A stretch of 63,665 nucleotides of DNA, filler included, from Hausera hauseri (lineage: Eukaryota): assembly GCA_046269625.1 (NCBI GenBank). It is 10 parts of 10 records of this genome, joined end to end, with 100 filler letters (N's around TTAATTAATTAA, not from the genome) between each part and the next. Parts side by side here need not be neighbours in the genome. Positions count along the whole stretch, not along the records: positions 1 to 16,765 come from JBJURY010255513.1; 9 more parts are not named here. One strand, given 5' to 3'. A model generated the notes under the pieces. It did not search any database. It was not told where the DNA came from and saw only the letters and a list, made by a program, of their open reading frames with translations. Positions 118 through 42,639 of this stretch are shown here, piece after piece (position 1 is the first letter of the stretch; every line of letters begins with the position of its first letter). Made by a program: the position numbers and the translations under genes.

Positions 118-1641
118 TCAGTCATCGTCATCAACATCCACTGAAGTGGGGAGAGGGGCAATGAAAGCTGAAGGTGGCGGGTGTGCACTGAGAGGGAGGT
201 CGAACCAATTAACTGGGGGCGGAATGAAATTTGCAAGGTGTGGGTGAATCTGGGCAGCCGCTGGTGTCCAGATAGTGTCCAATTTGTTAAGACGAGATAA
301 GTGACGGAATAAGTCAAAAACATCATTGAGCATATTGGTGTAATTCAAAGTTCCAATAGAACGAATACGATTTATGCGGCATGCATCACGATAAGAAACA
401 AAACCCCATGGGCCTCTTTGTAATTCGATACTTCCCAGTATATCGTCATAACTTTGAGCAAAGCAGGCTAAGAACTGAGCAACGTCAAAAGTAACTAAGA
501 CACGTCCATAAGTGCATCGAGCCACATGCAACATGACTAGGTTGAAATCTGGAGCCGAGTCGAGCATTTGGAGGGAAATGCCATGAATGTGAGATTCGAC
601 ATTAGACAAACGCACTCGTGGGTTAATGAGTGTGGTATAACGCTGTATTAAGGAGTCGTTCTGAATTTCCCCCAGGCTTACTCCGATACATATTTTAATA
701 GCTCCAGAAAGAGCGGTTGTAAATCCCACGAGGAGGAGATCAGAATCTACTGGTTGTCTAGCTAACCTCATGAAAGAAGAAGAGTTCAATTCAGGAGGTG
801 GCAAGGGTAGTAAAGAACAATCCATCGTACGAGTTGTACCATTAGAGGACTGGGACCAATAATCGAGCCAAGGTGACGGAATAGTGTGTTCAATTTCAAT
901 CATAATAGTTGTGGGTACCGTGACAATTTGTATTTTCGGACCCATGTTATTCCATACCGATCGGGAAAAACGGATTGAGGCATACTGAGGAATAGGAATA
1001 TCAAATTCATCTGTTTGACGTGACCACTGAAACTTGAGTTGACCTTCAGCCACAGACAAAAGAGTATCATGAAGGGTATATTGTAAGTCCGGTTGTTCAA
1101 TCAAATCCTCAACAAAGGTTCGAAGTGGTAGTGTACCTTTGTGTCGAAAGCGGTTGATTATAATTGATCTATTTTGGAGGCTATTACCCTTTAACCAATT
1201 AGGTAATGAGAACGGTGTTTTGTAGCACACGGTAGGGTGGACTAGAGAATTGGCCTTAATGGATTTATATGCATTGTTAGAGCGGGCTATTTCTTGAATT
1301 TCGGATGGAGATTGCATATTAGCGATTTGTATCGGCAACCCGGGAAGACTGCGTAGGTGAAGACTCTGGGCTGTATTATCCACAAAACGTAAGGAGAATT
1401 CATCTGGCTGCGATGTTTCAATGTTAGATGATTGTGCTGGTCTGCCATCGGCGGGTATCTCGTCACCCAGGCCGTATAAGAAATTCACGGCATTGGGTGT
1501 TGCTGTATTGCCCGATGAGGGGATGACTGTTTTTCGCCCACGTAACCAAGTTAAATAAGTTGGCTCGGCCACTGAAGGTAAGGAAGAATAAGAAAAATTC
1601 GCCACAGCCATGCAGCTCGCAGCTGTAGCCAAAAGTAACCG
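118..1641 (-). CDS. ORF4, accessory protein with a degenerate DnaQ/DEDDh exonuclease-like domain; in frame with pol after one TGA
   Basis: 504+ codon ORF. The segment RYTTLINP...IHGISLQMLDSAPDF...GRVLV resembles the DnaQ-family F.TLINP...IHGIT.EML..AP.F...VLVAHN motif. Confidence 0.65.
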   Translation of the reverse strand, partial: RLLLATAASCMAVANFSYSSLPSVAEPTYLTWLRGRKTVIPSSGNTATPNAVNFLYGLGDEIPADGRPAQSSNIETSQPDEFSLRFVDNTAQSLHLRSLPGLPIQIANMQSPSEIQEIARSNNAYKSIKANSLVHPTVCYKTPFSLPNWLKGNSLQNRSIIINRFRHKGTLPLRTFVEDLIEQPDLQYTLHDTLLSVAEGQLKFQWSRQTDEFDIPIPQYASIRFSRSVWNNMGPKIQIVTVPTTIMIEIEHTIPSPWLDYWSQSSNGTTRTMDCSLLPLPPPELNSSSFMRLARQPVDSDLLLVGFTTALSGAIKICIGVSLGEIQNDSLIQRYTTLINPRVRLSNVESHIHGISLQMLDSAPDFNLVMLHVARCTYGRVLVTFDVAQFLACFAQSYDDILGSIELQRGPWGFVSYRDACRINRIRSIGTLNYTNMLNDVFDLFRHLSRLNKLDTIWTPAAAQIHPHLANFIPPPVNWFDLPLSAHPPPSAFIAPLPTSVDVDDDD

Positions 1642-4600
1642 TCATAATATTACCTCATAGTTTAGGTCATAAGTTTGACATCTGGGGTTTCGCATATGAG
1701 TTTTAGTATTCTTACTGTTGATTGTAAGATTTTCATACATACTTCCAATTTCTCTATCTGTATTTGGGGGGTGTTTTTGGAGCCAAAGAATAAGGACAGA
1801 AACTAAGACGACCGATCCTATAACGACTAGAAGAGCAATAATCAAGGAGTATACAACAAAACTGTCAACAGACATTTCCGTTACGGTTTCAATTGAAGGG
1901 GCCATACTTATAACATGGCGAAAACCATGAAGGTTCATTGAATCAGTCAATGTCTTGCACGGTAAGGGAGTCGTTCGTTGAGAAACGGAAGGATACTGTT
2001 TTTGTTCACTTTTGAATACAGGCGTTGCGCGAATTTGAAAATATCGTTGGGTAGTCGACAGGGCAGAGGTTATGATGTTATCACGTAATGACATTAGCAC
2101 AGGAAATTGCAGGATGGCGTTAAGTAACAAAAAATTGTTAAAACCAGGTACAGTAAAGCTTAGTTTCACTTTATCCTTACTGATATTTGATACCATAGTA
2201 CTATAATTGGTTTTAATAAGGATGTTATTGGAGGTGAGGTGCTTTACGTTAATATTAGCTGGAGTAAGGCATAATATTTTCAATGCTCTGTGATGTGACC
2301 CTATTACTACTGTGGTCAGATCCAACTTCTGTCTTATAGCAATCCAAGGGATTGTATAAATTTCCTTTAATTTATTGTCGAATGTTGTTGCTACTCCTTC
2401 CCACAAGTACTCTCCGGATATTTTTAACGGCTTGGCTGGAGCTTGGATCCATTGGAAAGTCAAATATCGATGTGCATAACTTACGTGGCAATTTAGTTGC
2501 AACCATACAGCTTCACTGTAATTAAATTCTTGGTGATCTATTCTAAGGGGTTCAAGGGCCTCCCCAAGCCTACTAATTGAGAGTGGGCAAATTTGTCCTA
2601 TTGAAACAGCCCGTAATTGTAGCCCCCTATGTTTTTCACACCAGAATAGTAAAACTGGGATTTCCCTGTGATATATAAATGTCGGTGCCTTCAGCAATTC
2701 GGAGTTCCATCTACTGATTTGTGTACTATTAACCCATTCTTCAATTACTTGCTGTAAGGCTTCTTCGTCCGAATGTACATAGTAGCAGTGGCCTCCTGGT
2801 GACTTAAACATACAATGGAATCGTTGGTAGCGGTGACGGCCTTGTACCAAAAAGATATTGACCTTAATGTTGTGAAGGAAGTCCGACACAAAGGTATATA
2901 AACGTAATTCATTCCTTTGCTTTGTCCATCCCCATTGAATTTTTATTCCGTGTGATAAAGATAATAAGCATAGCAATAAACAAAACATGTACAATATAGA
3001 AAACTTCGGCACGCCTAGATTTGTTGGAGCTAACTCGTTCCTGGTCTGGTTAATGCCAACATCCTGAGGTATTACCGTAACTAATTGTGTAGGGGCCTTT
3101 TTGCACCGATCTGCTGCTACAGTTATGATTTCGTCTCGCTTCCCGATTTTTTTTCGTATAAAAATGTTCGTTTCTGTAACATTTTCCACTTTATAGGGAC
3201 CTTTCCACGGGCGAGCTAATTTTGGTGACTTACCTTTTTTTACTGCAGGTTCCAAAAGCATCACGAAATCGCCTTGTTTGATTGAGTGAGGACGTGCCTT
3301 TTTATCGTAATTTCCCTTATATGTTTTCTGATAATCAAGTGTTAACGATTGTGCTAAGGCCCATGCTTTCGTCAATCGTTCCTTCAAATAGTTTACATAG
3401 TTCGGTTCATGTTTTGCCAGGGTCTCATCTGGAATTATTTCTAAATCCTTCGGCAGAAGTGGGTCACGCCCATACATAAGGAAGAATGGTGGTTGCTGTG
3501 TTGCCGAGTGTGGCGCAGTTCGCAAGGCGAACATACAAGCTGGGATGAACAAATCCCAGTCATCTTGTCTATCGTCCGTTACCGTAGCCAACATTGATAA
3601 TAATGTGCCATTTAATTTCTCGACCATACCATCACAGCAAGGGTGATAAGCAGCTGTTTTAAGCTTATATATAGAGAACAATCGGCAAACCTCTTGGAAC
3701 ATTTTATTTATAAATTCCGTTCCTTGATCTGTTAATATTTTCCTGGGAGCACCGTACCTGAACACTATTTCCTCGACAAATAATGCTGCAACAGTAAAAG
3801 CTGATTTATCAGCCATTGGAAATGCCTCTGGGAATCTAGTCAAGTAATCTACAAACACCAATATGTATTGGTTCCCGCTCTGCGTCTTCGGTAACGGTCC
3901 GATTATATCCATCGCTGAAAATTCCATGGGACTCGCTGGTGGTGGTATCGGATGCAACGGAGGTTTACATCGGTATCCCCTATTTCGTCTGGTCGCACAG
4001 ATCTTACAGCTTGCACACCATTGTTCGACATCCTTTTGAATTGTGCGCCAGTAATATTTTCGTTTAATTCTACCCAATGTCTTCTTATATGCAGGATGCC
4101 CTGCTAATAATCCGTCATGTTCTTGTTGCATAATGTCGTGTCGCCTAGATTCTGGTATCACTACCAACTGCCGATCATTGTACCAATAGCGTAATAATTC
4201 AGATGCAATAAGGTATTTTGCACCTTGACTTACCAAGTGTTGTATTAGTTCTTTATGAGAGGTATTAATTTTTCGTGTTCGCACAAATTCTCTGATTACT
4301 CTCAATTCCGCATCTTGCTCTTGTTGGTTAATCAGCATCTGAATTTCATCATCTGGGATATGTGCCGTAGTTATCTGGAAGGTCATTAATTGTGATATGT
4401 GTTTTGATTCACATCCTTCCTCCAAGCATTCTAGCTCTCGTTTAGTAGCGGGTCTACGTGACAACCCGTCCGCATTTTTATTATTTCTACCAGGCCGATA
4501 AAACACAGTTAAATTGTATGCTTGCAATTTTAGTTGCCACCGTTTTAGTCTTGAGTACGGATCTTTTACTGTTGAAAACTCTAACGGTGCATGATCTGTG

Positions 4601-6909
4601 AAGACTTTCACTTCATGACCCCATACGTAATATCGGAATTTTTCAATTGCAAAGACAATAGCCAACATTTCCTTTTCTATTACAGCATATTTTTGTTCAG
4701 TTTCCGACAAGGTTCTGCTTGCATACGCAATTACGTATTCCCATTTTGAGTCTGGTGGCATTTGTGATAACACAGCTCCCAATCCAGTGTTACTTGCGTC
4801 TGTAAATATAATGAATGGCAAGGAAAAGTCTGGATATCTGAGTATTGGTGCTGAAGACAACAGTTTCTTTAGTGTGTCAAATGATTCCTGGGTTTCTATC
4901 GTCCATAGGAATTTAGTTCCTTCATGCGTTAACGCAAATAATGGAGCTGCTATTGTACTAAAGTTTGGAACATGTTTTCTATAATAACCACACGTACCCA
5001 AAAACGCGCGTAGCTCTGTTATATTCTTCGGTATAGGCCATGCTGTGATGGCGGACACTTTTTCTGGGTTTACTTCTATGCCCTCAGCTGAAACAATGTG
5101 TCCAAGAAAAACAACTTTCAACATTGCAAATACACATTTCTTAAGTTTCAATTTGAATCCCCAAATTTCTAGTAAATCAAGAATTCTTTCGATATCATCT
5201 AGATGTTCGTCCAAGGTTCGTGAAAATATCACGATATCATCAATATAAACCATTGCGTGCGTACAGTCTAGCAGCATTGCCTCTAAGGCTTCTTGAAACG
5301 TTGAAGGTGCGTTACATAATCCAAAGGGCATTACATTGAACTCATATTGGCCTTTACCGGCGGAAAATGCTGTCTTATATTTATCCTCCTCAGCCAGTGG
5401 TACTTGCCAATACCCACTTTGCATGTCCATCGTTGTAAAATATTTGGAGCCTCGTAGTTTATCAAATATATCTTCCTGTAGTGGGAGTGGATATGAGTTC
5501 TTTACTGTTTGACTATTTAACTGTTGGAAATCCACACAAATTCTGGCTCCCCCGTCCTTTTTTGCTGCTACTACAATTGGCGATAGCCATGAAGAATTAC
5601 TTTTTCTGATGACATCATTTTCTAACATTTGTTGTAATTGACGGTTAACTTCTTCTTGCAGTGCATGTGGGATGCGATATGGTCGTTGCTTAATTGGCCT
5701 TTCATTTAATAAAGGGATGTGATGGACTACGCGGTCGGTTTTACCCAGGTCTGCATCTGATTTAGCAAAGGCCCTTAGGTGCCTTTTAAGAACACACAAC
5801 AGACGTATTTTATCTTTTCCAATTAAATCGGTTTTTATACTGTCCGCCTCTTCGAACGTGCTGATGCATTCTTCGGGCTGAATGATGTGCGATATTGCAC
5901 ATAACTGTCCAATAGTTGTATTTTGTCTGAGTACAACCGCTTGTCTATCGGTATTTACTACTCGAACTGGCAAATAGCCATCTTTAATGGGACTAATACT
6001 GCACGCTGCTTTTATTCCAAGCCTCCTATTTGAGGTTACATCAGGTTCGAATAGCATAGTTCCATTTACCATGTTTGGTGCATAACCTTGTATAATGTGT
6101 TCACTTGTGGGTTCCAATATGATTCCTTCTGGTACAATAACTACTTCCTTCCGGAATTTTACCGCTGGTATCGCGAGCTGTCCTGTAGCTAGGTTCAGAT
6201 ATCGTCCTGTACATTTACGTTGTAAATCAAGTCCCACAATTACATCCTCAACTAACTTATCGAATACTTTGAATGTGTGCTTCAGGCGTTTATTATAAAG
6301 TATTATATAAGTCGTCCAATAACCTACTGGCATTAATTTGTCGCCCCATCCTGATACAGTTGCTCGGTCCTCTTTCTTGGGGGGGGGCAGTTCAGATCTG
6401 TATCTCTCTGGTATACTCGATAATAACACTATTGAATCGTCACAACCAGTATCCACTAGAGCCACAACGTCCCAATCTTCGTGAATGGTTACTAAAGTAT
6501 ATGGCCTTTTCGTGTCCATCTTACTTTTACTAGATCGAAATGCACAGAAGTTACTAAAACTTGGTACTCTTACGTTCATGTTTTCGATTTCTGTATCCGA
6601 ATTTTCCTCATCTTCTGGCTTTATTTCGGTGATAGGTAATCTACTTGGTGTGACGATTTTTATGCCTTTCAACTGTTGTCGTAACTCTCGGTATTTAATA
6701 TATTTAGCTTTGCTACCGCTATATAACGCATCTAATTGATCATCTTTTAACTTCTCCAGACCATCTTTATCTGTTACGGGTAACTTGGGCAACGGTCTTC
6801 CCTGATTCCTAGGTTTGATTTGGTGCAGTCGAGTACAACTATTAATTTTATTGTCTCGTTCCTCACTCCTAGAATTCTTTATCCACCCCCATACATTTTT
6901 TTGGGTATT
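1642..6909 (-). CDS. pol: Pol polyprotein (aspartic protease, RT, RNase H, integrase) with in-frame C-terminal type I membrane protein extension
   Basis: ALVDTG; YIDD; TDAS...EKEMLA...TDH; HHCC; MDIIGP/TDQG/VEKLN; WKGPY. Then the signal-like FSILYMFCLLLCLLSLSHG and TM FVVYSLIIALLVVIGSVVLVSVLILWL. The frame is open from 6909. Confidence 0.93.
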   Translation of the reverse strand, partial: NTQKNVWGWIKNSRSEERDNKINSCTRLHQIKPRNQGRPLPKLPVTDKDGLEKLKDDQLDALYSGSKAKYIKYRELRQQLKGIKIVTPSRLPITEIKPEDEENSDTEIENMNVRVPSFSNFCAFRSSKSKMDTKRPYTLVTIHEDWDVVALVDTGCDDSIVLLSSIPERYRSELPPPKKEDRATVSGWGDKLMPVGYWTTYIILYNKRLKHTFKVFDKLVEDVIVGLDLQRKCTGRYLNLATGQLAIPAVKFRKEVVIVPEGIILEPTSEHIIQGYAPNMVNGTMLFEPDVTSNRRLGIKAACSISPIKDGYLPVRVVNTDRQAVVLRQNTTIGQLCAISHIIQPEECISTFEEADSIKTDLIGKDKIRLLCVLKRHLRAFAKSDADLGKTDRVVHHIPLLNERPIKQRPYRIPHALQEEVNRQLQQMLENDVIRKSNSSWLSPIVVAAKKDGGARICVDFQQLNSQTVKNSYPLPLQEDIFDKLRGSKYFTTMDMQSGYWQVPLAEEDKYKTAFSAGKGQYEFNVMPFGLCNAPSTFQEALEAMLLDCTHAMVYIDDIVIFSRTLDEHLDDIERILDLLEIWGFKLKLKKCVFAMLKVVFLGHIVSAEGIEVNPEKVSAITAWPIPKNITELRAFLGTCGYYRKHVPNFSTIAAPLFALTHEGTKFLWTIETQESFDTLKKLLSSAPILRYPDFSLPFIIFTDASNTGLGAVLSQMPPDSKWEYVIAYASRTLSETEQKYAVIEKEMLAIVFAIEKFRYYVWGHEVKVFTDHAPLEFSTVKDPYSRLKRWQLKLQAYNLTVFYRPGRNNKNADGLSRRPATKRELECLEEGCESKHISQLMTFQITTAHIPDDEIQMLINQQEQDAELRVIREFVRTRKINTSHKELIQHLVSQGAKYLIASELLRYWYNDRQLVVIPESRRHDIMQQEHDGLLAGHPAYKKTLGRIKRKYYWRTIQKDVEQWCASCKICATRRNRGYRCKPPLHPIPPPASPMEFSAMDIIGPLPKTQSGNQYILVFVDYLTRFPEAFPMADKSAFTVAALFVEEIVFRYGAPRKILTDQGTEFINKMFQEVCRLFSIYKLKTAAYHPCCDGMVEKLNGTLLSMLATVTDDRQDDWDLFIPACMFALRTAPHSATQQPPFFLMYGRDPLLPKDLEIIPDETLAKHEPNYVNYLKERLTKAWALAQSLTLDYQKTYKGNYDKKARPHSIKQGDFVMLLEPAVKKGKSPKLARPWKGPYKVENVTETNIFIRKKIGKRDEIITVAADRCKKAPTQLVTVIPQDVGINQTRNELAPTNLGVPKFSILYMFCLLLCLLSLSHGIKIQWGWTKQRNELRLYTFVSDFLHNIKVNIFLVQGRHRYQRFHCMFKSPGGHCYYVHSDEEALQQVIEEWVNSTQISRWNSELLKAPTFIYHREIPVLLFWCEKHRGLQLRAVSIGQICPLSISRLGEALEPLRIDHQEFNYSEAVWLQLNCHVSYAHRYLTFQWIQAPAKPLKISGEYLWEGVATTFDNKLKEIYTIPWIAIRQKLDLTTVVIGSHHRALKILCLTPANINVKHLTSNNILIKTNYSTMVSNISKDKVKLSFTVPGFNNFLLLNAILQFPVLMSLRDNIITSALSTTQRYFQIRATPVFKSEQKQYPSVSQRTTPLPCKTLTDSMNLHGFRHVISMAPSIETVTEMSVDSFVVYSLIIALLVVIGSVVLVSVLILWLQKHPPNTDREIGSMYENLTINSKNTKTHMRNPRCQTYDLNYEVIL

Positions 6910-9530
6910 TTACTACTTTTTATTTTTCGTTGCTTTGACCATTTGGATCCATAAACGCTCACTCTATCTGCTCCTCCACCACCATAATCTTCGTCTCGCT
7001 TTTCTCTCTCCCTCATCCACTGGGCCATAAATGCATGTTGTAAGCATCTGGCTAACGGCGGACAAAGTGCTGTTAGTATTTTCTTGGAACAACCAAAAAG
7101 TTGGAAATTTATAAATCCATTAGTTATTTGTGCGATTATCGTTCGTAGAATTTGCACTATGAAGTAAATAGCTAGAAATCCAGATGACACTTGTCCAAAC
7201 GTCATCATTCCCCCCCATAACTTTTTGAATATCGTCTTAGCTGCCTTGGTAAAATGATCCGGGCTTAAGATGTTTTCCCAGTTTGTTTTTCCATTTCCTG
7301 TATCAGTAACTTTCTGTGTATATGACACTATAAGCCTTTGTAATTGTTTCGGAAACAATAAGTATCTTCTTAATTTTTCCATACTAGCCTCATCGTACAA
7401 ACCTCCTTGAAAAAAATTAACATTATTGTCGAACTTCAATTGTTGTTTTAATGCCAGCATTGTCAGTTTCTTGGGAGTTATTATTTTCGTTCTTGACGGC
7501 ATCGTAACCCAGTGATCATGTCCAATCTTAAACAGTGGTGCAACGTTTCTTATGCACTCCTTTAATACCGTTGGATCTTCGGTTGGTATCAACATTACTC
7601 TCGTTATTGGTGCTACGTATCTTATGTGCCCATTATATTTTACGGCTATTTCATTGGTACATATCGTAGTATCTACCACTGGTACGTCAACTTCCCGACA
7701 CTGAAAGGTTACTAACCCTTCTCCAGTAGTTCTACCGAATACTCCTCGTTGTTTTGTTGGTAGGATTGGGGTATCTATCGAAGGGTTATGGGCTGCTACT
7801 GTGACTCGTAATGCCAATAGATCCTGTGTTATCAAGCAGTCGTTTTGGAGCATTTCCTTGTATATTTTATACTGATTATTGAGCATATAGTGGAACAGAT
7901 AATCCATTTTACCGTTGTAATATACCATTGGTTTAATCTCAGTTGGGTGCACTTGTTTTTGCGCATCTACTACTTCTGTTGTCTTAAGGTATATATCTTC
8001 GACGTTAGTAGAATATACCTCTGTTTTACATTTGATCACTATTTGTTTTCTTATCAATCGTATTGCATCATCGACTGTTGACATTAGGACTGCCGGTGTC
8101 TCAATCTCTGTTAACCGTTGTACGTCCGTATCCTCAGTGTGCGTCGGTGTTGGCTTTGAAAATCTAACACCTTTTGTAATATTGAACGTTACAGCTTTAA
8201 TGAAGGCTAGATTACAGGTTATAACTTCCACGTTCCAGGTAATTATCGAATCTGTGGTAAAACAATACCCATTACCATATACACAGTCCATCCGAATCAT
8301 TAGTTTCAATGTGTCAGCGTCAAACGTAATTTCTTTATCGGTAACTGTCCATGCATACAGATTTTGTACCACTATCCGTGATACTTCATCCACAGTTTGT
8401 CCTGTACATGTCCCGTCTTTACCTACCATACCTCCTTCATTTATTGTTAGGTATTTAATACCATTAACTATTGTTGTTATTTCTACCTTGTCGTTTACCT
8501 TCAACTTACCCAGTCTCACAGCCTCTTTGCAATCGTCCGGCAGCACTCTCTGGGGCTCATCTGGTGACGCTATTAATAGGTTCGTTGAGTGAGTATGGGC
8601 TTTGCCACAATGCCATTTTTTTGTTTGTTTCGTCAATTTACATTCCAACGCTCTTACTCGAAAAAATTTATTTTCCTGATATATATAATATTTTGTTGAT
8701 GGTTCTGTTATCAGTTTGTCCGGTTCGGCATCAGGGCATTTCTCTAGATCAACTAAGGAGTACGTGGCTCCTACTTCTGGTTTATCGCAATCAAATGCCT
8801 TGATCCCCTGCCCTTGAGGTAGACGCCATAAAACTAACATAATTAACAAGACACTCATCATTCCTTCCAAATTCAATCGTGGCGCATTATCCAATATTTC
8901 CTCAAAACCTTTTATTATTTGTAGAAAACCCTTTTCCATGTTATAGGGATTTTTAACGGGCCGACCTTGCTTTTGCTGGTATCCTCGTTCTGCTGGTTGT
9001 GGGATATGATTAAGGTCCAACAATTTGTCCCACCCACCAAATCGCTGTGCTCCCCCGGATAAATTATTCTTTGCAATCTCCATCGCAATCTCGTTATTAT
9101 TTTCAAAGTCCTCTTGCTTTTCACTTGACATCTGTACTCTCATTGCTAAATATACGAGGATTGCGATCATACGGTCCTTCGACACTGCTCCATCCTGCAT
9201 CCATTTTTGAATTATCTCACTATCCTTTAACGGATCGATTGAACTTGGTAATTCTTCCTTCGTTATTGCTTTTTCCATTTGCTGCAATACTTGTTTAAGG
9301 TGCCCTTCAATACCATGATCACCTTCTTTTTCCTCCTCTTGTGACCAAGGTTTGTCATCATCCTTGTATAAGATTTTATAAATTTTATAAAAAGTTTGTT
9401 TAATTTGTCTACTCTCCGGATATAAATTATTCGTCTCGGTCGTACGCAAAGCTCGGGTTAGTGTGTCAACACTAATTTGTTCTATTAGATTTTTTTTGGT
9501 CTCCCTCTTGGTTTCTTTCTTATCTGGGCT
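6879..9530 (-). CDS. env: Envelope glycoprotein, chuvirus/gB-like (class III-type), preceded by a ~200 aa helical leader and internal signal sequence
   Basis: Hydrophobic MMSVLLIMLVLW is followed by GIKAFDC...TYSLVDLEKC, a Cys-rich ectodomain (DGTC, QNDC, FQC, TICTNEI), GGLY, and the TM region GQVSSGFLAIYFIVQILRTII. The frame is open from 9530. Confidence 0.8.
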   Translation of the reverse strand, partial: SPDKKETKRETKKNLIEQISVDTLTRALRTTETNNLYPESRQIKQTFYKIYKILYKDDDKPWSQEEEKEGDHGIEGHLKQVLQQMEKAITKEELPSSIDPLKDSEIIQKWMQDGAVSKDRMIAILVYLAMRVQMSSEKQEDFENNNEIAMEIAKNNLSGGAQRFGGWDKLLDLNHIPQPAERGYQQKQGRPVKNPYNMEKGFLQIIKGFEEILDNAPRLNLEGMMSVLLIMLVLWRLPQGQGIKAFDCDKPEVGATYSLVDLEKCPDAEPDKLITEPSTKYYIYQENKFFRVRALECKLTKQTKKWHCGKAHTHSTNLLIASPDEPQRVLPDDCKEAVRLGKLKVNDKVEITTIVNGIKYLTINEGGMVGKDGTCTGQTVDEVSRIVVQNLYAWTVTDKEITFDADTLKLMIRMDCVYGNGYCFTTDSIITWNVEVITCNLAFIKAVTFNITKGVRFSKPTPTHTEDTDVQRLTEIETPAVLMSTVDDAIRLIRKQIVIKCKTEVYSTNVEDIYLKTTEVVDAQKQVHPTEIKPMVYYNGKMDYLFHYMLNNQYKIYKEMLQNDCLITQDLLALRVTVAAHNPSIDTPILPTKQRGVFGRTTGEGLVTFQCREVDVPVVDTTICTNEIAVKYNGHIRYVAPITRVMLIPTEDPTVLKECIRNVAPLFKIGHDHWVTMPSRTKIITPKKLTMLALKQQLKFDNNVNFFQGGLYDEASMEKLRRYLLFPKQLQRLIVSYTQKVTDTGNGKTNWENILSPDHFTKAAKTIFKKLWGGMMTFGQVSSGFLAIYFIVQILRTIIAQITNGFINFQLFGCSKKILTALCPPLARCLQHAFMAQWMREREKRDEDYGGGGADRVSVYGSKWSKQRKIKSSKIPKKMYGGG

Positions 9531-11983
9531 TCAGTATTTCGTTGCATCGTTCCTTTGGGCAGTACTTCGTCACCTAGTTCTGGTACTTCTGCAAATACCC
9601 ATAACGGTTCCGGTATCTCCTTTAATTGATTAATCGAATTATCTGAACCTGACTTGAGGGGCCGGATGTATTCTGTTGCACCCAATACCTTATTTATTTG
9701 TCGTTCCAATTTGTGTTGATCATCGTCCCTTTTCCTTTGGGATTCCTCAAGATATATTTCAACAATTTCGTTAGGATCCATTCCAGACATAACTCCTAAT
9801 TCCGTCCATTTTATATCTAAGTCATTTACTTGACGCCCCATGAACCTAATAGTAATAACAATATCCTCGTCATTACAACGCCACTGATTTTCAGGTAACA
9901 ATATCTTTAATATCTTCTGTATCGGTGCCTCAGGGTCTATCATAGCTTGTGTTTCAGTGTATACCTTTCCGTCAATTATCCTAAATTGAAGCAAAATGTC
10001 ACCTTCCTCTTTTTGAGGCTTAAAGCCTTCCTTTTGAGCGAATATTTGCAATATCAACCGTGCCATATCTCTTCGCGGAGCTCCATCTGCCGCTTGGGCT
10101 ATGAGATATTTTCTAACTTTGATAATCCGTGTTTTATGCTCGGTTATCCACTCACGGAGTTCATACATTTGATCCATTATTGTTGGTGTTACATCATTGG
10201 TTGGGTCGTTCTCTATTTTCTCGAGTAATGCCCTGAACTGTTCTTCGTGGTAGTCGATTTCATTTGCATTATCTGGCTCTTCAGCAGTTGCTGGAGGCGT
10301 TGTTACTTCATAATCTTCTAGTATCATTATAGGTATATCTTTATCTTTTTCACCTTCCTCCCTTGTTTTGGTTAGTACGTCTGTATTGTTATCGTTTAGC
10401 GGTGCTATCTGATTAAGGTGTAGCGATTTCAATCTTTCAAACTGGGTTCGCATATCATCAAGTTCCAATTTGTGTTGTTTCATTTGAAAAATCATTTCTT
10501 CCCGTGTTAAAGACATATCTTCTGTCTCAGGGGATACAGAGATTATACCTTCCTCCCGGAGACCTTGTGAACTATTAGTATGTGCTATCTGATTAGTCGC
10601 ATCCATTTCTTCATGCATCTGATAGCAATTCGTGTCATCCATTGGATTAAATGATGCACTTGCATCATACACAGAGTGCATCAGTGCCATGCTAGTCGGA
10701 TTAATATTGCCATACCTTATCGGGCACTTCTTTGCCAGATGTCCTGCTTGGCCACAATTGAAACAGTTCTTAGGTTGCGATACACCAAAATTTTGTTGCG
10801 TTGCAGGCTGTATCAAGCCTTGTTGTTGCTGTATGGGACATGTTTTTGCTGTATGTCCCCTTTGGCCACAAGCGTAGCATTGCTTCGGAGATTGTGCATG
10901 TGGCGGAGTGGTAAACGGCATTTGTGCCATATATGGGCATGACTTCGCCAGGTGTCCAAAGTTTTTACAATTATGGCACTGTATAAGCCCTTTTGCATTG
11001 ATATTATCGTGTTCGAGTATGGTTGTTTGGTTTCTGTTACCTGTGGATCGTAATGAATACGGCATAGTTTTGGCAGAACTTCCCATTGGCGCGACCTGCA
11101 ATCGATTGACTGCAGCACCGGTTGACATAGCATTTGATCCTGTTGGTTGTCGTACATTGCCGCCGTCTGTTGGGGACGTTTGTCGTTGTATTGGTGGTTG
11201 ATGTGGACGCACTCCGAGTCCCATATTCCATTGAGGCCTAGTGTATACCATTGGATGCCTCGGTGGTCGCAACCATTGTTGTTGCGGCCATCCTTTTCCA
11301 AGGTCCACGTGTTTGTTCCATGTGTTACGACCTGTTGGTTGGTTAATATTAAATGTTGATGACTGAGTAATTTGCGCATGAGGTATAGACGGTGACGTAT
11401 CTTGATGTAATAAACCTCTCTGTAATATTTGTGACATTTTAACATCGACATTTTCATGAGCTATAGCCTTTTTAACTAATTCACTAAATGTCGTGGCCTC
11501 ACTCTCGATTAAATGTCGCTGTACTTTGGGGTTTCGTAAACCCGTTATGAAGCAATCCACAAGAATAGGCTCTGTTTCAAAAACCTTCTTGTCGTCGGCT
11601 TTTTTATCTCTATTCTCGTTTTCCAGCGCGACTTTATATCGTTTTGCTAAAGCTTGTAAGGCTAGAGCGAACATATTCACGGATTCTCCCGCATGCTGCA
11701 CGCGTGATCGTAAATGTCTTAATCGGGCATTGGACGAAGGGTCCGGATCGACACATTTTCTCAATCTTTCAACTATTTCCTTCCATGGTTTATCCGCCTT
11801 GTCTATCTGAAGGTATGCCTGCAGTGCCACACCTTCCAAGTACCCTACCAATTTCTTTACTTTCTCTTTATCATCCCAGTCGACGCTATCCGCCTGTGCT
11901 TCATACATAGTAATGAAGTCGTCAAAGGCGGCCGGCTCACCGGCATATCTATTAATATTTAAGCCTGCATATAATTGCGCCAT
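9485..11983 (-). CDS. gag: Gag with capsid-like N-terminus, 3 CCHC zinc knuckles, SUMO/ubiquitin-like domain and C-terminal AT-hook
   Basis: Retrotransposon-gag N-terminus (WDDKEKVKKLVGYLEGVAL; QHAGESVNMFALAL). Knuckles CHNCKNFGHLAKSC, CYACGQRGHTAKTC and CFNCGQAGHLAKKC. Ends RKKPRGRPKK. Confidence 0.9.
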   Translation of the reverse strand: MAQLYAGLNINRYAGEPAAFDDFITMYEAQADSVDWDDKEKVKKLVGYLEGVALQAYLQIDKADKPWKEIVERLRKCVDPDPSSNARLRHLRSRVQHAGESVNMFALALQALAKRYKVALENENRDKKADDKKVFETEPILVDCFITGLRNPKVQRHLIESEATTFSELVKKAIAHENVDVKMSQILQRGLLHQDTSPSIPHAQITQSSTFNINQPTGRNTWNKHVDLGKGWPQQQWLRPPRHPMVYTRPQWNMGLGVRPHQPPIQRQTSPTDGGNVRQPTGSNAMSTGAAVNRLQVAPMGSSAKTMPYSLRSTGNRNQTTILEHDNINAKGLIQCHNCKNFGHLAKSCPYMAQMPFTTPPHAQSPKQCYACGQRGHTAKTCPIQQQQGLIQPATQQNFGVSQPKNCFNCGQAGHLAKKCPIRYGNINPTSMALMHSVYDASASFNPMDDTNCYQMHEEMDATNQIAHTNSSQGLREEGIISVSPETEDMSLTREEMIFQMKQHKLELDDMRTQFERLKSLHLNQIAPLNDNNTDVLTKTREEGEKDKDIPIMILEDYEVTTPPATAEEPDNANEIDYHEEQFRALLEKIENDPTNDVTPTIMDQMYELREWITEHKTRIIKVRKYLIAQAADGAPRRDMARLILQIFAQKEGFKPQKEEGDILLQFRIIDGKVYTETQAMIDPEAPIQKILKILLPENQWRCNDEDIVITIRFMGRQVNDLDIKWTELGVMSGMDPNEIVEIYLEESQRKRDDDQHKLERQINKVLGATEYIRPLKSGSDNSINQLKEIPEPLWVFAEVPELGDEVLPKGTMQRNTEAQIRKKPRGRPKKI

Positions 11984-12108: not shown

Positions 12109-12121
12109 GGCGTGGTCGCCA
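12109..12121 (-). promoter_or_regulatory. Primer binding site, probably tRNA-Arg
   Basis: Minus-strand TGGCGACCACGCC lies between the LTR end and gag. It is complementary to a ...CGUGGUCGCCA tRNA 3' end, as in animal tRNA-Arg(UCG) isodecoders. Confidence 0.7.
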
Positions 12122-12125
12122 GATT

Positions 12126-12680
12126 TGTTGTGGCCCCTTGCCTAATAAAAGCTCTCTGTATTTTACTTGATTATCTATTTATTTATTACTTTGGAGACTT
12201 CCCCAATTAAATGCCCGTCTACCCTACTGTTTATGGTGCCCTCAAGATCACTGGGCTTGTCCCAAAGATCGTGGTTACTTTTAACCCTAACCTCAGTCCC
12301 TCTTTAGTTTTACCTCAGTAGCCACTGAGCTAACTCTCAAAAGCTACACTCGTTAGTTAAAGTAATGGGTCGCAGTAATTATACTCAAATTAAAAAAAAT
12401 AGGTAGTATGGCGGCTACAAACAAACAAAAAAAACAAAAAGAACATACTTTATTACAAGCCAAACCGTTCAAATCATTTTGTCAATAAAGTTTTTTTTGT
12501 CAGTCCCCAGATGCAGTTTATATAATACTGACATCGTGGGATTAAATTACAAAAATCAGCCAATGATTCAACAAATAATGACAGAGTGTCACAAAAATTG
12601 TTACACAAAATCAATCATACACCCGTATTACTACGGCTAATTGTTACACCAGTTGCCGAAAAAGAATACAATTTGTTACA
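12126..12680 (-). repeat. Putative 5' LTR
   Basis: The minus strand ends ...CCACAACA 4 nt before the PBS. It contains TATATAAA (~12516-12523) upstream of AATAAA (~12448-12453). Candidate start TGTAACAA at 12680, with alternatives near 12605 and 12648. No second LTR is available to confirm the boundaries. Confidence 0.55.
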
Positions 12681-25976: not shown

Positions 25977-26961
25977 ATGGCCAACCGAACTGTTCGAGAT
26001 GCTCATACAATTCATGGAAAAAATCCCCAAAATTTAATTGAAAAGGTTATTAGAACTCGGATATATGATTCTAGATATTGGAAAGAAGAATGTTTAGCAC
26101 TTACATGTAAGTTGTAAGTTTTTTGTTATTTTTTATTTAAATTTTGCTTTAGCTGAACTCTTAGTTGATAAAGCTTGTGAATTAAAATATATTGGCGGTG
26201 TTTTTGGTGGAACCAATACTCCAACTCCATTCTTGTGTTTATTGCAAAAGCTACTTCAGATCCAACCAGATAAAGATATTGCAATCGAATTTATCAAACG
26301 GAATGAGTTTAAATATTGTCGAGCATTAGGAGTCATGTATTTGCGTATCACCGGAAATGCTGTAGTAATTTACAAATATTTGGAAACGTTATATAATGAC
26401 TATTCCAAGTTGAAGAGGCAAGATCAAGACGAAAAGTTCACGATTACCCACATGGATGAATTTATCGACGAATTGTTGAGAGAAGATCGAGTCTGCAGTA
26501 TTGTTTTGCCGAGATTACCAAAACGAGATGTTCTCGAAGGGTCTAATGAACTCGAGCCAAGAGTTTCAATACTCGACGAAGATTTGCAAGATCTAATGTT
26601 ACAAGTCGTTGAAGAAGAAGAAGAAAAAGAGGAAATGAGAAAACGATCAGACAAAATTACGGCTAAGGAAGAAGTCAGTCGACGAAAACGAAGCCGTTCA
26701 AGAAGTCGGGATAGACGAAAATCAAGAAGTCGTTCACGAAGCCGAGGGAGATCTCGTTCACGTGGTAGATCACGATAGAGATCGAAAGACCGTGCTCGTA
26801 GACGTTCGCCGAGACGTGATCATAAAGATCGTAAACATGATAAACGGGAGCGTTCTCGCGATAGATCAAGAGAACGAAGATACGACAGAGAATCGTCACA
26901 AGATCGCAATAAAAGAAAAAGTGATCGAAAAGACTATGATAAACATAAGGACAGATATTAA
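25977..26961 (+). CDS. PRP38: Pre-mRNA splicing factor PRP38 (PRPF38A-like); exons 25977-26106 and 26153-26778, or to 26961 if the TAG is bypassed
   Basis: MANRTVRDAHTIHGKNPQNLIEKVIRTRIYDSRYWKEEC; PTPFLCLLQKLLQIQP; HMDEFIDELL; RS tail; 46-nt GT-AG intron. Confidence 0.93.
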
Positions 26962-29006: not shown

Positions 29007-31744
29007 GTAAATATGATTCATGGTCTGTCAAATATTTGTAGTGGTAAATTACGGATTTATTTCTGTTTGTGATAAACTAAGAATAGTTTCATAAAATAGT
29101 TTTTCACATTAATTTTTATAAAATAGTTTTGTGTAATTATTGTATTAGAGTTAATAGAGTAATTCGCATACAATTTCGACAAATGTTCTAGTAATTGTTC
29201 CATTTCAATTGAGAGGTTATTGTGTTGTTAAATAAGAATATTTGGCACACAATGTCTTTATCCATGAATTTAGGGAATTGCATATTTGTAGACTTCTATA
29301 TGATTACGAGGTAATTTGCATATTTTATTTCCGAATAATTCCAGAAATGAAATATATGTAAAACTAAGCTAAATTTAATGTAACCGAGGAAACCATATTT
29401 TCTAATAATACTAGATGAACAGAAAAAAATCAAAGCACGATTAATTGTTACAGATTGAATTTTCGAATCTAATATCAAATTTTGTATGCACCAGATGTCA
29501 TAATTTGTGTTCAATTTCCACTACATTTGTCGTTAGTTTGCTATTATTAATGTCTTCATTTGCGCGATATTAGAACATTGAACAGATTCTGCAACATAAT
29601 TGTCCACAAAAACTGACATTTTTATGAAATAAATTGCCTTTTGGTACTTTGATTCTCAGTAATCGTTACTGATAAAATTAAAGNNNNNNNNNNNNNNNNN
29701 NNNNNNNNNNNNNNNNNNNNNNNNNNNTTAATTAATTAANNNNNNNNNNNNNNNNNNNNNNNNNNNNNNNNNNNNNNNNNNNNGTTCAAGTAACTAGGGA
29801 ACCTCCGTGACCTAGATTATGACAAGATGCACAAAAGTGGCCAGGAGTTGTTGCGCGAAATGTGAAATTTTGTCATCTGCTACCGAGACCATCCACAACT
29901 TATAATGAGAATGGCCATAGACCAGTGAGTCGCTGTCATGTTTCATAGCAAATTATCGCAGCATGCCAAGGTACATGTAAAACCTGTTAATATTCGAAAT
30001 CGTTATTCATTTCTACATGCGCCTGATAATTTTTAAACTCCACACTTAATTAAAAGTAACCCAACAACGCACTGATTCAAACCCACTACTGCCGGCGTAC
30101 AAGTCAATGGTCAGCCACATTGGTTTGCTAACGGCATTCTAATGTGACATTTGAGGAGATTCCATAACATTACGTGAGCACGCACGCAATACAGACACCC
30201 ACACTCATCAGTATTATACACTTTTTCATTAGCCTGAGAAATTTGGGCGGCGTGCCTTCTCACGTAAACTTGTTATCGGGTATGGAAACGTACAGCATAC
30301 TGCGGATACATAATGTGATCATCCATGATGGTCTGTATAGACAGTGTTTCTGACACCGAATGTGGCATTTGCAGAGATGCCAGAACATTACGAGAAAACG
30401 CTCGCAGAATTTATAGTAATGAAATTGTGTATTAATCTGAAAAATTAACAGGTAAGGGGCACTTCTCGTAATGGTTTTGTCGACAACGGAATGGCAAATA
30501 TCTATGAAGTCGGATCAATAACACTGCGTTATCAAGAGTTGGAACAGGGAGCGCCCAGGAGTCGGAGCCAACAGTTTTGTGTCCAACTCGGCAGCCCTAC
30601 TACAGGCATGATTTTTTTTTACCTGTAACTGCGAGGCAGACTAATCCACTCAAATAGCATGATCATGTCCTAGGATAAAGACCCGACAAAGTAGATATCA
30701 CACAGCAATTTATTGGGCATTAAGAAATGCCTCTCTATTCCTCTCGGTCTTTTGTTAGCTTGTAGTTCCCGCCTGTTTTTCATACCTTTTCAATCAGCCT
30801 TCCCCTGTTTTTCGCAAGTCACAGCAGTCGTTTACAAATCTCATACTACATACTGCTGAGCCAAGGCCGTGCAAGGGAGGGGTGACTGAGTTGGTAGGAC
30901 ATGTCGACACTGACCTCCAACTATTGTGTGGGGTCCCATTTATCTTGTAAAAAATCGGTAATGAAAATACTCAATGCGCTGTCTGAAACTGAGCCTACAT
31001 TTTATTATGTTAATTATTAAAATTATCTGTTCATAACCCACAAGAGATATGTTTCGCATTTATTAAAAAACTTGTAATCCATTGGAAACAGACAGCAGAA
31101 CAGCAAAAAGCATTGGCGACAGACGAGTATCCCTAGATAGTCAAGATGGTTGTGGGTTGCTATACCAGCGGGCTGGCGCTACAAATGGGAGGGGAAGGGG
31201 TGGGATTTAGAAAGGATATATCCGGAGATTATGTCGATAAATAAAACCTGTGGGCGAAACTGACAGCGATGGACGAGTGTAAAATACAACCATGCTGCCA
31301 GGGAAGATACGAATATCATAAACTGCTCATTGTCCTAATCTCATTTTGTCTTGCTCGTTGTATGTCAGCTTTTGCTCGTTCATGTTAGATTTTCGTTTGC
31401 GGTCACAATTTCCAAAACATTAACTGCATTTATGTATGACCCCCTTATTATTCTAAAGCTTTTCATGATCAAGAACATTGGTCGTTTTTTTTTTTCCATA
31501 CATTCTTAATGAACACATATCACTGATAATGGTATATTAGAAGAATGTGATTTTGTTAAATCCATGATAACTTACAACGAAATTTTACACACAAAAAACG
31601 ATTACACCCCAGTGTAAATGCAAACATCAATTGGAGTCATAGAGTGTAGTGCTTGCGTGTTATATTGTGACAGTTTTGATTTATGTATACTGAATAATAA
31701 TTTCTTGAATAAATGTTCACTTTATAGATGATCGGCTGATCAAT

Positions 31745-34489
31745 ATGGCGTGTACGAAGACAGTTGCAGACCTAAAGTCTTACCTTCAATCATATCCTGC
31801 AGAATACCCGATCAAGCAAGGGTACATTGCGAGATTACTTTGTGAGGGTAGAAGCAATGAAGAAATTATGCAGCAGTTAAAATATATTGCCGTCGGCAAA
31901 GAGATAGATAAATGTATAAACGATAAATTGGTACGGGCATTTCTGATTCGTTTTGATAGAAAATTGAAACAAAAGAAAGCAAACATCACTTTTAACTGGT
32001 TACAGCTTACAAATTTATTTACTAAAAACTATGATGTACCATTTAAAAAATGTACTGGTTTTCTTTCTTCACAGCTGTTATTAAATCGCACAAAACAAAT
32101 TAAATCCACAACAACTGTATATAAATTGAAAAGGCATTGTTTAAGTTGTATATCAAAAATAAGAACACAGATAAACTTAGCAAAAGATAATGCATATTTA
32201 CGTAAAAAAATAAAAGAAATGAAGAGAAACACCAGTGCATGTAGTAATGAATGCAGATGTGAGAAAGAAATTCTTAAAAAAACAACTAAAAGTGTAGATA
32301 TATTGAAACGCAAATACGTAAATGAAAAAGTAAACAGGACACAATTGATAATATACAAGCATTTGTGGTGTAACGAGAAAGAAGCGAATCGGCTTAAAGA
32401 ACAGTTAGAGAAGTGTAAAACAGACATTTGCGTTACGCAAAAGGAACTACAGGAAGTCAGACAGTTTAATGAGAAAATAAAAATTAATATTAAAGAATTA
32501 AGGCTGAAAGCGAAAAAAAGAAGTTGATGAAATGAAAAAGCAAAATGCGAAAGATATCGCAGCAGCTGTGAAAGAAACAGATTCACAGATAAGTTTTTTA
32601 GAAAATGAAACACAACAAATACGAGAGAAGCTTGATGAAATGACTGAATGTAGTGAAGCAGTGAAAGAAGATTGCAAGACGTATGGATGCGACGTCAGGA
32701 AATGTGTGTACAAATGTCTTGTAAGTCAAGTCAGTGTGGATAAATGCTCCGAAATTATTAAATACGTAGGTGAGTGTTTGTTTCATAGGAAAGTTTCTTG
32801 CTTACCCGTAAAATCTGTCGTTGCGAATATGTCCTACGAGCTGGGTGTTTTGTCAGATATGCTGGTGGGCTACCAGCTGCACAAGATGCAGGGTGTTGCA
32901 ACGTTAGCATGGGACGCTACAAACTTTCAAGGCTCCCATGTTAATGAAGTGCATATAGAAACAGGCTCTGGCAGATTTGTAGTAAACATTGCAGTACTTC
33001 CTGGCGGTACTACTGCCGACTACTTCCACCAGATATGTGAAGCTCTCCTGGCTGTAATCCGCACTTACAGTGATGCATTTAATCAGGCGGAAACAGATGT
33101 CCGAAACATAGTTTTCGGCAAAATAAGAAGCTGCATGACTGACAGAGCAAGAGTTAATCACTCTGTAGTGCAGTTACTCCAGGAAGAGTTTGACGTGAAT
33201 GTGGTGGAGCTAAACTGCCTAGTACACCCGTTAGATGGTCTGGCTTGTGCTGCTAGGAGTATACTCATGACACTTGACACCAAGTGGAGAGTCCAATGCC
33301 AAAAAATACCTGGTACCGAATGTGTTGCAGCTACCCTTATTTACTGCATTTCCAAGCTGAGATACAAGAAAGGAGCGGGCGATCCTGCTGGGTTTAGGAT
33401 ATTTTTAAGACAAAAAAATCTCAGACCAGGCCTAATCCTCAGATATGTTGGAAACAGGATTAATGTCCTGTTTCGCATGGGGGACATCGTATTCCTTCAC
33501 CGAGATCAGAGAATTTGATGTGAATCGACGCCAAAACATATATGGCACTGAACCGAATGTGTTGCAGCTACCCTTATTTACTTTTTTACTTTCATTTCCA
33601 AGCTGAGGTACAAGAAAGGAACAGGTGACCCTACTGGGTTTACTGCATTTTAAGAGAAAAAATCTTAGACCCGGTTGGAAACAGGATTAATGTCCTGTTT
33701 CGCATGGGGGCCATCGTGTTCCTTCACCGAGACAAGTTGCTAGAATATATGAAAACATGTATTCGCACGCAACTGAAGGAGCTCATAATAGAACAGTTGC
33801 AGAACGATCTGGTTATGATCCAGCTCCGAGCTCTTGGGCTTTTTGCAAAAGTTCTGACAGAGCCATGGATGGGTGTGTTCTATGGAAATGCAGCGAAAAG
33901 ATTCACTCTTCAGCTGAACACATACATCCAGACAGGCGTTGACAATCTGAGGAAACTCAGCCACGAGCCAGACCACATATTACACTGCACGGAGGATGTA
34001 TTTGGGCAGCCTTTAAAACAATCGGATGATGTTGCGCGACTGCAAAATGTGCAGCGGAAATATAAGCAACATTTCACATACGCTGTTGCCGAGTTAGCAT
34101 CTTCATTTGAAGATGTGCTTAACAGACAACTGGCGCGTCATCTCAGTGGTGATCTGGCTGTTCCATCCGATGATATGCTGGCGAACACTGCATCAGCTCC
34201 CGCCAACAACATGTATGCGGAGAGGGTGTTAGGCATGACAGATGCTCTTTGGCGACGAGCTCCAAACGCCACCTGTGGCTTCATTAACGGCAAGGTCAAA
34301 GGTAACCTAAATAAGGTAATCGACTGGTTGGAGACATTTTCTGACAATGAGCAAAGAAAACTGGTTGCCTTTGCCACTAAACGCGCGCGTGAAGTGCGCA
34401 AAGCTAATGAAGCCAAAACTCATCTACTCCATAATGAGATGGCTAGGCATCAGAAACAGCATGTGCAGAAGATGGAAAAAACCAGAAAG
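31745..34489 (+). mobile_element. DDE transposase with CxxH motif (hAT/P/MULE/Kolobok-type clade), disrupted by a frameshift and an internal duplication
   Basis: LAWDAT (D1), MTDRA (D2), NCLVHPLD (CxxH), NNMYAERVLG (E). N-terminal coiled coil. Frameshift at the A-run near 32513-32519. Confidence 0.7.
33315..33731 (+). repeat. Diverged tandem duplication (~190 bp) within the transposase
   Basis: 33315-33504 and 33552-33731 share accgaatgtgttgcagctacccttatttac...gttggaaacaggattaatgtcctgtttcgcatgggg. Confidence 0.85.
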
Positions 34490-34589
34490 NNNNNNNNNNN
34501 NNNNNNNNNNNNNNNNNNNNNNNNNNNNNNNNNTTAATTAATTAANNNNNNNNNNNNNNNNNNNNNNNNNNNNNNNNNNNNNNNNNNNN

Positions 34590-37500: not shown

Positions 37501-38621
37501 GAAAATTCTGATCTGATCCGGCCTTTTATTCTTGTGGTTTGTGCAAGAATTTTATTGCGTCCGTTAAAGTGACTCGATATTCCGGACAAATGTCTCGGGT
37601 TTCAATATCTTGCACAGAGATCTTATCGATAGGTCTATCTGCTAAATGCTGAATTCCTTCTAGTCTGACATTTCTTAATGTTGGGTAAAAATTACAAGTC
37701 ATATTTCGCTTTTCTGTAAAATTCCTCTCTTCGACCATTTTATAGGTCTCTTCCAGTATCGTCGCTTCTTGTTTCTTATTCATAAAATTTAGCCGTCGTA
37801 ATGCTTTAAATTGAATTCGGACATTTATTTCTGCCTTTATTGTGTCCAAATTACGTGCGCTTTCTTCAAACTGTTTCTTTATAGAAGGCTTGCTCTCTGA
37901 AAATTTTTTCTTACGGTTTTCCACTAATTTACTTAGTCGCGTTACTAATTTGGACCATTGCGACAATTGATTGGCGATTATTGGCTTTGCCATTATAGCC
38001 TTATCTAGCATCTTATATGCATATTTTAACTCATCATCTGGACCTTTTACGAAGTTTATAATCAGACTGACATAACTAAATTCGTCCTTATATTCGTCGA
38101 ATTCTATGATGCAAGCTTTTATTATATATTTGGTTTCTTCATTATTCATGAACATGATTCAATTTTGTAAACTACTAATCTGCTATCTTTTTTCATTCTC
38201 CATTTTAATGCGACTCTAAGTCCGCGCATCGTCTAGGTTCGGCAAAGGCAATTTTTATCATTTCCATTAATGGAGCAATATATACTGAGTCTATACCCAA
38301 TATTTCTATATCGACATCACTTCGACTACTAAAAGGTTTTTCTCTAAGTCGATTAATTATTGCAAAACGAATTTCATCCATCATACGTTCTAAATTTCGG
38401 ACAACTCTCTTTAGTTTTGGATTTGCTTCTATGGTAGACAATAGCTTCTGAACCTTAGCGACTTTTACGTCGACATTATCTTCATTTTTGCTTCATCCTT
38501 CCGAAAATTCGACTCCACTTTTAATCCATGATTCTAACTCATGTTTCCATTTTAACAATGTTTCAGGTGATACCTCTTCAGGTTGTCCTAAGTCGATTGC
38601 TTCATCAAGCTTTCCTTCACT
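34590..38621 (-). pseudogene. Decayed relative of the gag-env element: helical region, UBL, AT-hook, leader, chuvirus/gB-like glycoprotein
   Basis: YRFYFRGRILDDLEQLIDVGI (UBL); RPIGRPKK; LRKVLLYLAVKI and WSKLFD (leader); signal followed by VTVYDCDK...YSPMDLDVC; MIMNDC...ANPELVSPIIP. Multiple in-frame stops. Confidence 0.8.
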
Positions 38622-41700: not shown

Positions 41701-42635
41701 TACAGTGAGTCTATATGGTATGTTATATTGTGCGTCAGTATTTGAGAATTATTTAATAAAAAGTAAAACAAAAGGGTGTCACAGGCCCTATTGGGTGGTG
41801 TGGCGATTGAATGGATTATGGTTTGGGACCCACTGACGAAGGACGGGCGGCCGGGAAGTCGGTCACACTGCCATGCACCAGAAAATATGGGTTGACCGAA
41901 GCTTCACTGGGGGTCCAGTCAGAAAAGTATGTTAATTCGATTGTTCAATCGTGTTTCCATGGCGATCGATACTCAACTGGATATCATCAGTAGGGACGGT
42001 ATTACCGCTGTCCAAAGTAATAGTACGTAAATGGAGGTTAGACATAACAAGGGGTATATCAATATATACTCCGTAAATCATGGTTTCAAAGGAATTCAGA
42101 GGACGTCTATGGAAAATCAGTGTCAAACATAAAACTCTCAGATGAAGATTTAAGTTAAGGGCTGATGAAAATGTTAGTGGATCATGTGAACAATTATAGG
42201 GAATCTCTAAGTAAAGGGACATCAAGTTACAACTACAACTGGAGGCTAAACCTAAAAGGGGTGATGTTGTTATTCCAACGGCGGACATATGAAAAGCAAA
42301 AACATAAGAAAAACAGGGAAGAGAAATCGTTAATAAGTAAATGAAGAAGATTGTTGCCAGATGAATAGTACGCAATAACAAATCTCACCTCATCATGCGC
42401 TGGTTTCTCCGCGGTTGGCAGTATCGTTTTGCATGGTTGGCACTGCAGATCGACTTTCTCACGTCGTGTCGTCCTACGAGCGATCTGCATACTCAAGGAC
42501 TCTGAACAAACCCACCAGTTCTTTCTTGTCTGCTTTGTGCCTTTTGACAAACGTCTGTAATCGATCATCTTACTCGCTCCACTCTGCAGTCTAATACTGA
42601 TAATCTCACTGGTTTACAGCAGTTTTGTTGATGTT
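38722..42635 (-). mobile_element. Decayed Ty3/Gypsy LTR retrotransposon (gag, protease, RT fragments; probable LTR ~41930-42635)
   Basis: FLIDTSA protease; DYRQLN; YPLP; MPFGL; YIDD; gag-like KPSEFLR. Many frameshifts. LTR boundaries uncertain. Confidence 0.8.
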
Positions 42636-42639
42636 GCAG

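Follow-up and report, generated by a model that had tools for sequence, protein, structure and literature searches.

The first contig (positions 1–16765, JBJURY010255513.1) of a 63,665-nt stretch of Hausera hauseri DNA carries, on its minus strand, a Burro-like retroelement that our analysis assigns to Ty3/gypsy and to the GAG-ENV-POL type; its Env is of class III and gB-like. This whole stretch, here called the window, consists of ten short eukaryotic contigs with runs of N between them. The evidence gives good support to the view that Pol is made as a cytosolic continuation of Env within one membrane-threaded Gag-Env-Pol polyprotein. The pol frame lies at −1 relative to env over a run of seven A residues. 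With a probability of roughly 0.55, we attribute this offset to a slip in the length of the run, either in this copy or in a collapsed assembly, and not to conserved, programmed frameshifting. Pol is still produced behind Env whether the offset reflects a slip, a programmed shift or polymerase slippage.

Organization of the element

Four consecutive long frames, gag, env, pol and ORF4, were found on the minus strand (Table 1). The order of the first three matches the layout of GAG-ENV-POL errantiviruses with HSV/gB-type Env, and Pfam gave the Pol domain order PR-RT-RH-IN, as in Ty3/gypsy (Metaviridae). The coding sequence is about 12 kb long, and no lesion besides the two −1 offsets was present in 11.9 kb. 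None of the exact window proteins (6 of 6 tried) was in the protein collection searched.

Table 1. Features of the H. hauseri element, with positions given along the window.
Feature	Position	Strand	Basis
5′ LTR candidate	12126..12680	(−)	Sequence; probable ends TGTAACA ... CAACA
Primer-binding-site-like TGGCGACCAC (TGGCG site)	12110..12121	(−)	Sequence
gag ORF, 832 aa: capsid-like start, three CCHC knuckles, C-terminal GRPKK	9485..11983	(−)	ORF and Pfam
A8 run at the gag/env −1 offset, canonical A_AAA_AAA in the gag frame	9490..9497	(−)	Sequence
env frame, 883 codons; class III gB-like fusion glycoprotein PF24664 at aa 227–843	6879..9530	(−)	Pfam, E=4.9e-68
Predicted internal signal sequence before the Env ectodomain, aa 219–237	8820..8876	(−)	Hydropathy
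Predicted Env transmembrane segment, aa 781–799	7134..7190	(−)	Hydropathy, AF2
env/pol overlap, pol at −1; A7 run at 6896–6902	6879..6909	(−)	Sequence; run-length variant in three X1 contigs
pol frame, 1755 codons: 150-codon linker, protease (DTG 6453–6445), RT, RNase H, integrase, 470-aa membrane extension	1642..6909	(−)	ORF, Pfam
Predicted second internal signal after integrase, pol aa 1304–1322	2944..3000	(−)	Hydropathy
Predicted second transmembrane segment, pol aa 1689–1707	1789..1845	(−)	Hydropathy
pol stop TTA TGA CGG TTA, candidate type II readthrough, then candidate stem-loop	1636..1647	(−)	12 nt shared with L007; UGACGG motif
ORF4, 507 codons, in the frame of pol; exonuclease-family accessory ORF	118..1641	(−)	Profile of relatives' downstream ORFs (four sequences), E=2e-11; Pfam RNase_T only E=0.027

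The position of the 3′ LTR falls past the contig end. One contig from X1, the best-matching run, connects window position 1 to position 12540, as expected of a collapsed 3′ LTR. Depth in X1 was about 100 across the element and about 20 on its flank. Several collapsed copies may account for this, although contig depth is no measure of copy number. No tRNA gene was found within the window.

Env and its membrane segments

The Pfam family matched by Env is Monjiviricetes_fusion. An AF2 model built from 101 sequences reached a pLDDT of 88.5 and matched herpesvirus gB by Foldseek (E=9e-14), while a model from three sequences (pLDDT 34) was unusable. Pfam, hydropathy, and AF2 with Foldseek place the gB-like class III ectodomain between an internal signal and a transmembrane (TM) segment, both called by crude hydropathy scales. 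The internal signal has an equivalent position in the relatives L007, L010, P0121 and P0024. Hydropathy and AF2 agree on one hydrophobic segment after the ectodomain; L010 and P0121 each show a marginal second stretch past the Env TM, which the window element lacks at an equal cut-off. In the env frame the tail extends 58 aa past the CPP motif, against a median of 62 among 91 hits of 600–760 aa, this median being measured from a profile position near CPP rather than from CPP itself. Word-based protein searches with Env gave no matches, and two scans of viral contigs were likewise empty.

Relatives carry Gag, Env and Pol in one frame

A BLAST search with pol returned, among the 120 hits listed, P0024 as the best match (42%), in which Env and Pol share one frame. 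Among these 120, two proteins (P0024 and P0077) also include the Env family; in P0077, whose Env is more distant, Gag, dUTPase, Env and Pol form a single ORF of 2707 aa. A single Gag-Env-Pol ORF was also found in P0121 (3735 aa). Our motif scan of metagenome contigs led to 14 fetched loci, eight of them with pol hits and two with env, and both env-holding loci, L007 (3184 aa) and L010 (3703 aa), are again single Gag-Env-Pol ORFs. The single-ORF layout with env in frame, present in L007, L010 and P0121, is absent from the window element because of its two offsets.

We searched 1.84 billion proteins with an Env HMM and obtained 2382 hits. Of the best 19, 14 extend as far as the TM, and in 11 of them the frame runs on into a protease-like domain. 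A further relative, P0135, is a fragment of Env at 91% identity. The other three (P0122, P0130 and P0139) stop near the TM, and P0028 begins mid-linker; these are protein sequences only, and a split frame is possible in all four. In 18 relatives chosen for being fused, and no more than 80% alike in the C-terminal half of Env, 78–347 residues separate the end of the Env match from the next protease-like motif. Counted from CPP, the protease lies 204 residues away in the window element and 190 in L007.

The Env-protease linker holds a YPx(1-3)L/I/V, PT/SAP or PPxY motif in 13 of the 18 fused relatives, including L007, L010, P0024 and P0121, a count made without a chance control; no such motif occurs in the linker of the window element. 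We take these motifs to resemble budding late domains.

The GRPKK motif that ends gag in the H. hauseri element, presumably AT-hook-like, shares the env frame in P0126. Window positions 34590–38158 (−) hold a second element of this group, now decayed, where a single frame is interrupted by stops and Env is broken; there too GRPKK is in frame with the Env signal. The single-ORF relatives and the in-frame GRPKK together indicate that the polyprotein is the normal state of this family. The sum through both junctions of the window element is about 3,447 aa, in agreement with the Gag-Env-Pol polyprotein of about 3,450 aa that had been predicted, for which these single-ORF relatives are natural counterparts.

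In an RT tree of the relatives found here, built from 33 of the 119 qualifying rows, the window element sits on a long branch that is placed with weak support beside a starred clade. Its RT shares no more than 53% identity with that of any relative. This adjoining clade holds the single-ORF relatives, with P0077 outside it. With so long a branch and so low an identity, the single frame of the relatives need not hold for the window element.

The −1 offsets at the A-runs

The original prediction had the pol frame open from 6909, at −1 to env, with an overlap at CCC AAA AAA ATG that contains A7 and the non-canonical C_AAA_AAA, and all of this was confirmed in the sequence. In the 31-nt overlap the env frame reads ATA CCC AAA AAA ATG TAT GGG GGT GGA TAA, and the in-phase heptamer C_AAA_AAA is not of the form X_XXY_YYZ in the 0 frame, so that it is non-canonical. 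The prediction that pol has no ATG for about 110 codons also held, since its first Met is codon 111. Such a Met-free stretch was free of stops in 4 of 20,000 shuffles, and the other two frames carry 7 and 14 stops. A linker profile of the relatives failed to recognise this start of pol, with 285 of 500 shuffles scoring as high.

Pol could also be made from a message of its own in the manner of foamy viruses, by a gag-pol splice that skips env or by a start at Met111 or Met131, each of which precedes the active site of the protease (codon ~153). This is very improbable, as 110 open codons precede Met111, Env is fused to Pol in the relatives, and no pyrimidine-rich acceptor is present where the pol frame opens, the YAG beside it falling in the poorest pyrimidine tract class of 331.

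A run of at least seven A residues occurs in 1.0% of 31-nt segments of the element and in 1.7% of 46-nt segments, 46 nt being the length of the gag-env overlap. The frame changes therefore coincide with A-runs beyond chance, as both a designed signal and a homopolymer slip predict. The element has eight runs of at least seven bases, and the two offsets sit on the only two within inter-domain linkers. This placement has a chance of 1 in 28 if runs are struck randomly and would be less remarkable if slips favoured longer runs. Both offsets are −1, with equal phase and similar context.

These observations allow a programmed double −1 ribosomal frameshift, in which the single ORF of the family would be split at two A-rich sites to give Gag > Gag-Env > Gag-Env-Pol. 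The canonical heptamer at the gag/env site, the ordinary length of the Env tail, the absence of any other lesion and the long RT branch of the window element agree with it, as does a review in which pol is given as −1 to gag in 28 of 51 animal retroelements (PMC5009743). However, the env/pol heptamer is non-canonical, and none of six folds at the two junctions was significant (z −0.57 to −1.64, pseudoknots being outside the model), while the gag/env hairpin begins about 15 nt from its heptamer. Neither −1 offset was found in any relative compared, all of them distant (RT at most 53% identical), and the overlap was thus not recovered as the conserved frameshift signal that had been proposed. 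Run-length variants at the env/pol site also speak against a double frameshift, which we regard as possible but doubtful.

In X1, three contigs, with 60.5 of a summed depth of 225.4, have a variant length at the env/pol A-run. Contigs of X1 vary as well at runs inside domains, in the protease (6378), env (7209) and integrase (3160), so the run lengths in X1 are unreliable and cannot decide between signal and slip. The mixed lengths at the junction would also fit polymerase slippage put to use, where RNA polymerase II or RT slips at the A-runs and a mixture of Gag-only, Gag-Env and full-length products sets the stoichiometry. RT has been shown to slip at short runs in vitro, and such slippage has been proposed for retrotransposon gag-pol (PMC5737552). 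Since the in-domain runs show length variants too, we judge this explanation improbable.

We thus prefer the reading of the −1 offset as a run-length slip, based on the non-canonical heptamer, the lack of a significant fold, the run-length variants in X1 and the single-frame relatives. Against a slip stand the striking of linker runs only, the shared direction, phase and context, the ordinary Env tail and the lack of any other break.

A second membrane domain and a candidate readthrough stop behind Pol

A predicted signal/TM pair follows integrase in the same frame as pol (Table 1), and the same was found in L001, L004, L006, L007, L010, P0027, P0028 and P0041. P0121 has the post-integrase pair too. 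The original prediction had included neither this pair nor the ORF that follows the pol stop in frame. Signal, ectodomain and TM behind integrase (window 1789–3000 (−)) recur across the clade. In the ESM Atlas, the post-integrase domain had only matches below 0.9 to viral envelope clusters (0.85), which are a lead rather than an assignment.

The 12 nt around the pol stop are identical at the stop of the main ORF of L007 (1976–1987 (−)), although the two Pol proteins are only 39% identical. After TGA CGG the frame continues for 507 codons in the window element and for 607 in L007. A candidate stem-loop 3′ of the stop has a z of −2.9 at 120–150 nt and +1.2 at 60 nt in L007, and of −0.8 to −1.6 in the window. 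The stops could be read in six elements, of which two have TGA CGG; the other four end in TAA and carry their downstream ORFs separately. UGACGG is known as a motif of type II readthrough, for instance from VEEV and Colorado tick fever virus (PMC13517186).

Some downstream ORFs of relatives match RNase_T, at up to 1.5e-11. One or two exonuclease-family ORFs lie behind pol in L001 (1148–4251), L006 (183–3242), L010 (12085–13470) and L004 (1113–2627). Several relatives also have extra protease-like repeats, with ankyrin repeats in P0041 and C2H2 fingers in P0024. A DEDDy exonuclease ORF3 occurs in rotifer LTR elements (PMC5408684).

As judged from sequence, the pol/ORF4 stop is a better recoding candidate than the A-run junctions, with putative readthrough into an exonuclease-family ORF. 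A stop-start at the pol stop, by an AUG overlapping the UGA, was also considered and rejected. It would yield just 60 and 49 codons in the two elements, with likeness limited to the first three residues, and readthrough is preferred for this reason. Our literature search returned no paper that combines LTR retrotransposon, stop codon readthrough and DEDD exonuclease.

It is conceivable that recoding occurs three times on one mRNA, through −1 shifts behind Gag and behind the Env tail and through UGA-CGG readthrough behind the second membrane domain. In place of the single giant polyprotein of the family, this would give the graded series Gag > Gag-Env > Gag-Env-Pol-TM2 > exonuclease fusion, and Pol would enter particles as the Env tail. 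We consider this combination unlikely.

Proposed topology and comparison with known systems

The prediction that Pol lies on the cytoplasmic side of Env gains support from the single-ORF relatives, hydrophobicity and the AF2 model. In the polyprotein proposed here, Gag would stay cytosolic, and the internal signal would direct Env into the ER lumen and be cut by signal peptidase, with the single TM halting transfer. The linker, protease, RT, RNase H and integrase would then lie on the cytosolic side. The second signal would send the post-integrase domain into the lumen and the second TM would bring the chain back, so that Pol might be tethered to the membrane at both ends until the protease of the element releases it. 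The tether at Env or at the second signal could carry Pol to the budding membrane and possibly load particles; it is reasonable to suppose that Pol might be packaged by way of Env. Run length may vary between copies through reverse-transcriptase or replication slippage.

The Gag-Env-Pol polyprotein layout is already known from published elements, including Burro in 2019, and it belongs to a published Ty3/gypsy type. The suggestion that the element resembles an RNA virus more than a retroelement was therefore not upheld. Nematode endogenous retroviruses reportedly have a continuous gag-env-pro-pol ORF. In the planarian Burro/GYPSM1 giant gypsy-like elements, env is in frame between gag and protease (Arkhipova and Yushenova 2019, PMC6431247). 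Burro and the window element both have a Gag with CCHC knuckles, an env related to mononegavirus fusion proteins before the protease, and accessory domains or ORFs. However, Burro is one ORF of 4,873 aa in an element of more than 30 kb, whereas the window element has about 12 kb of coding sequence and two −1 offsets. The part of that paper seen mentions no post-integrase membrane domain or readthrough exonuclease in Burro, both of which are predicted in the window element.

GAG-ENV-POL errantiviruses with HSV/gB-type ENV have been described from Platyhelminthes, Bryozoa and Nematoda (Chary and Hayashi 2026, PMC13524379). They share with the window element the gene order, the Ty3/gypsy Pol and the gB-type Env. 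The Env of Smed_errantivirus_1 in the supplement of that paper resembles the window Env by eye, the two being unaligned. The same paper cites nematode endogenous retroviruses with Env before Pol (Sacco et al. 2022). In its main text, the terms frameshift, splic-, readthrough, polyprotein and exonuclease occur 0 times, and Pol expression is unaddressed there.

VEEV and Colorado tick fever virus (PMC13517186) have UGACGG in common with the window element, as well as a downstream stem-loop, for which the window element has a candidate. Unlike in those viruses, the candidate readthrough of the window element would attach a domain of the exonuclease family to the cytosolic tail that follows the second TM. 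An exonuclease-family accessory ORF behind pol is common to the window element and the rotifer LTR elements (PMC5408684).

Single-ORF Gag-Env-Pol elements need far more capsid than enzyme, with Pol threaded through a membrane protein. The window element offers three short and directly testable cassettes, namely the two linker A-run offsets and the candidate readthrough stop that a distant relative shares. If the offsets are slips, it is one further member of the published group.

Other features of the window

An unrelated, broken Gypsy pol fragment lies at 38909–40534 (−), with protease and RT in different frames. At 31709–34537 (+) there are three ORFs in succession with a short internal duplication, which give the impression of a possible DNA-transposon remnant. 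We take three further regions to be host-like genes, one Prp38-like (26098–26778 (+)), one primase large subunit-like (42565–43041 (−)) and one UBX-domain-like (60010–60936 (+)).
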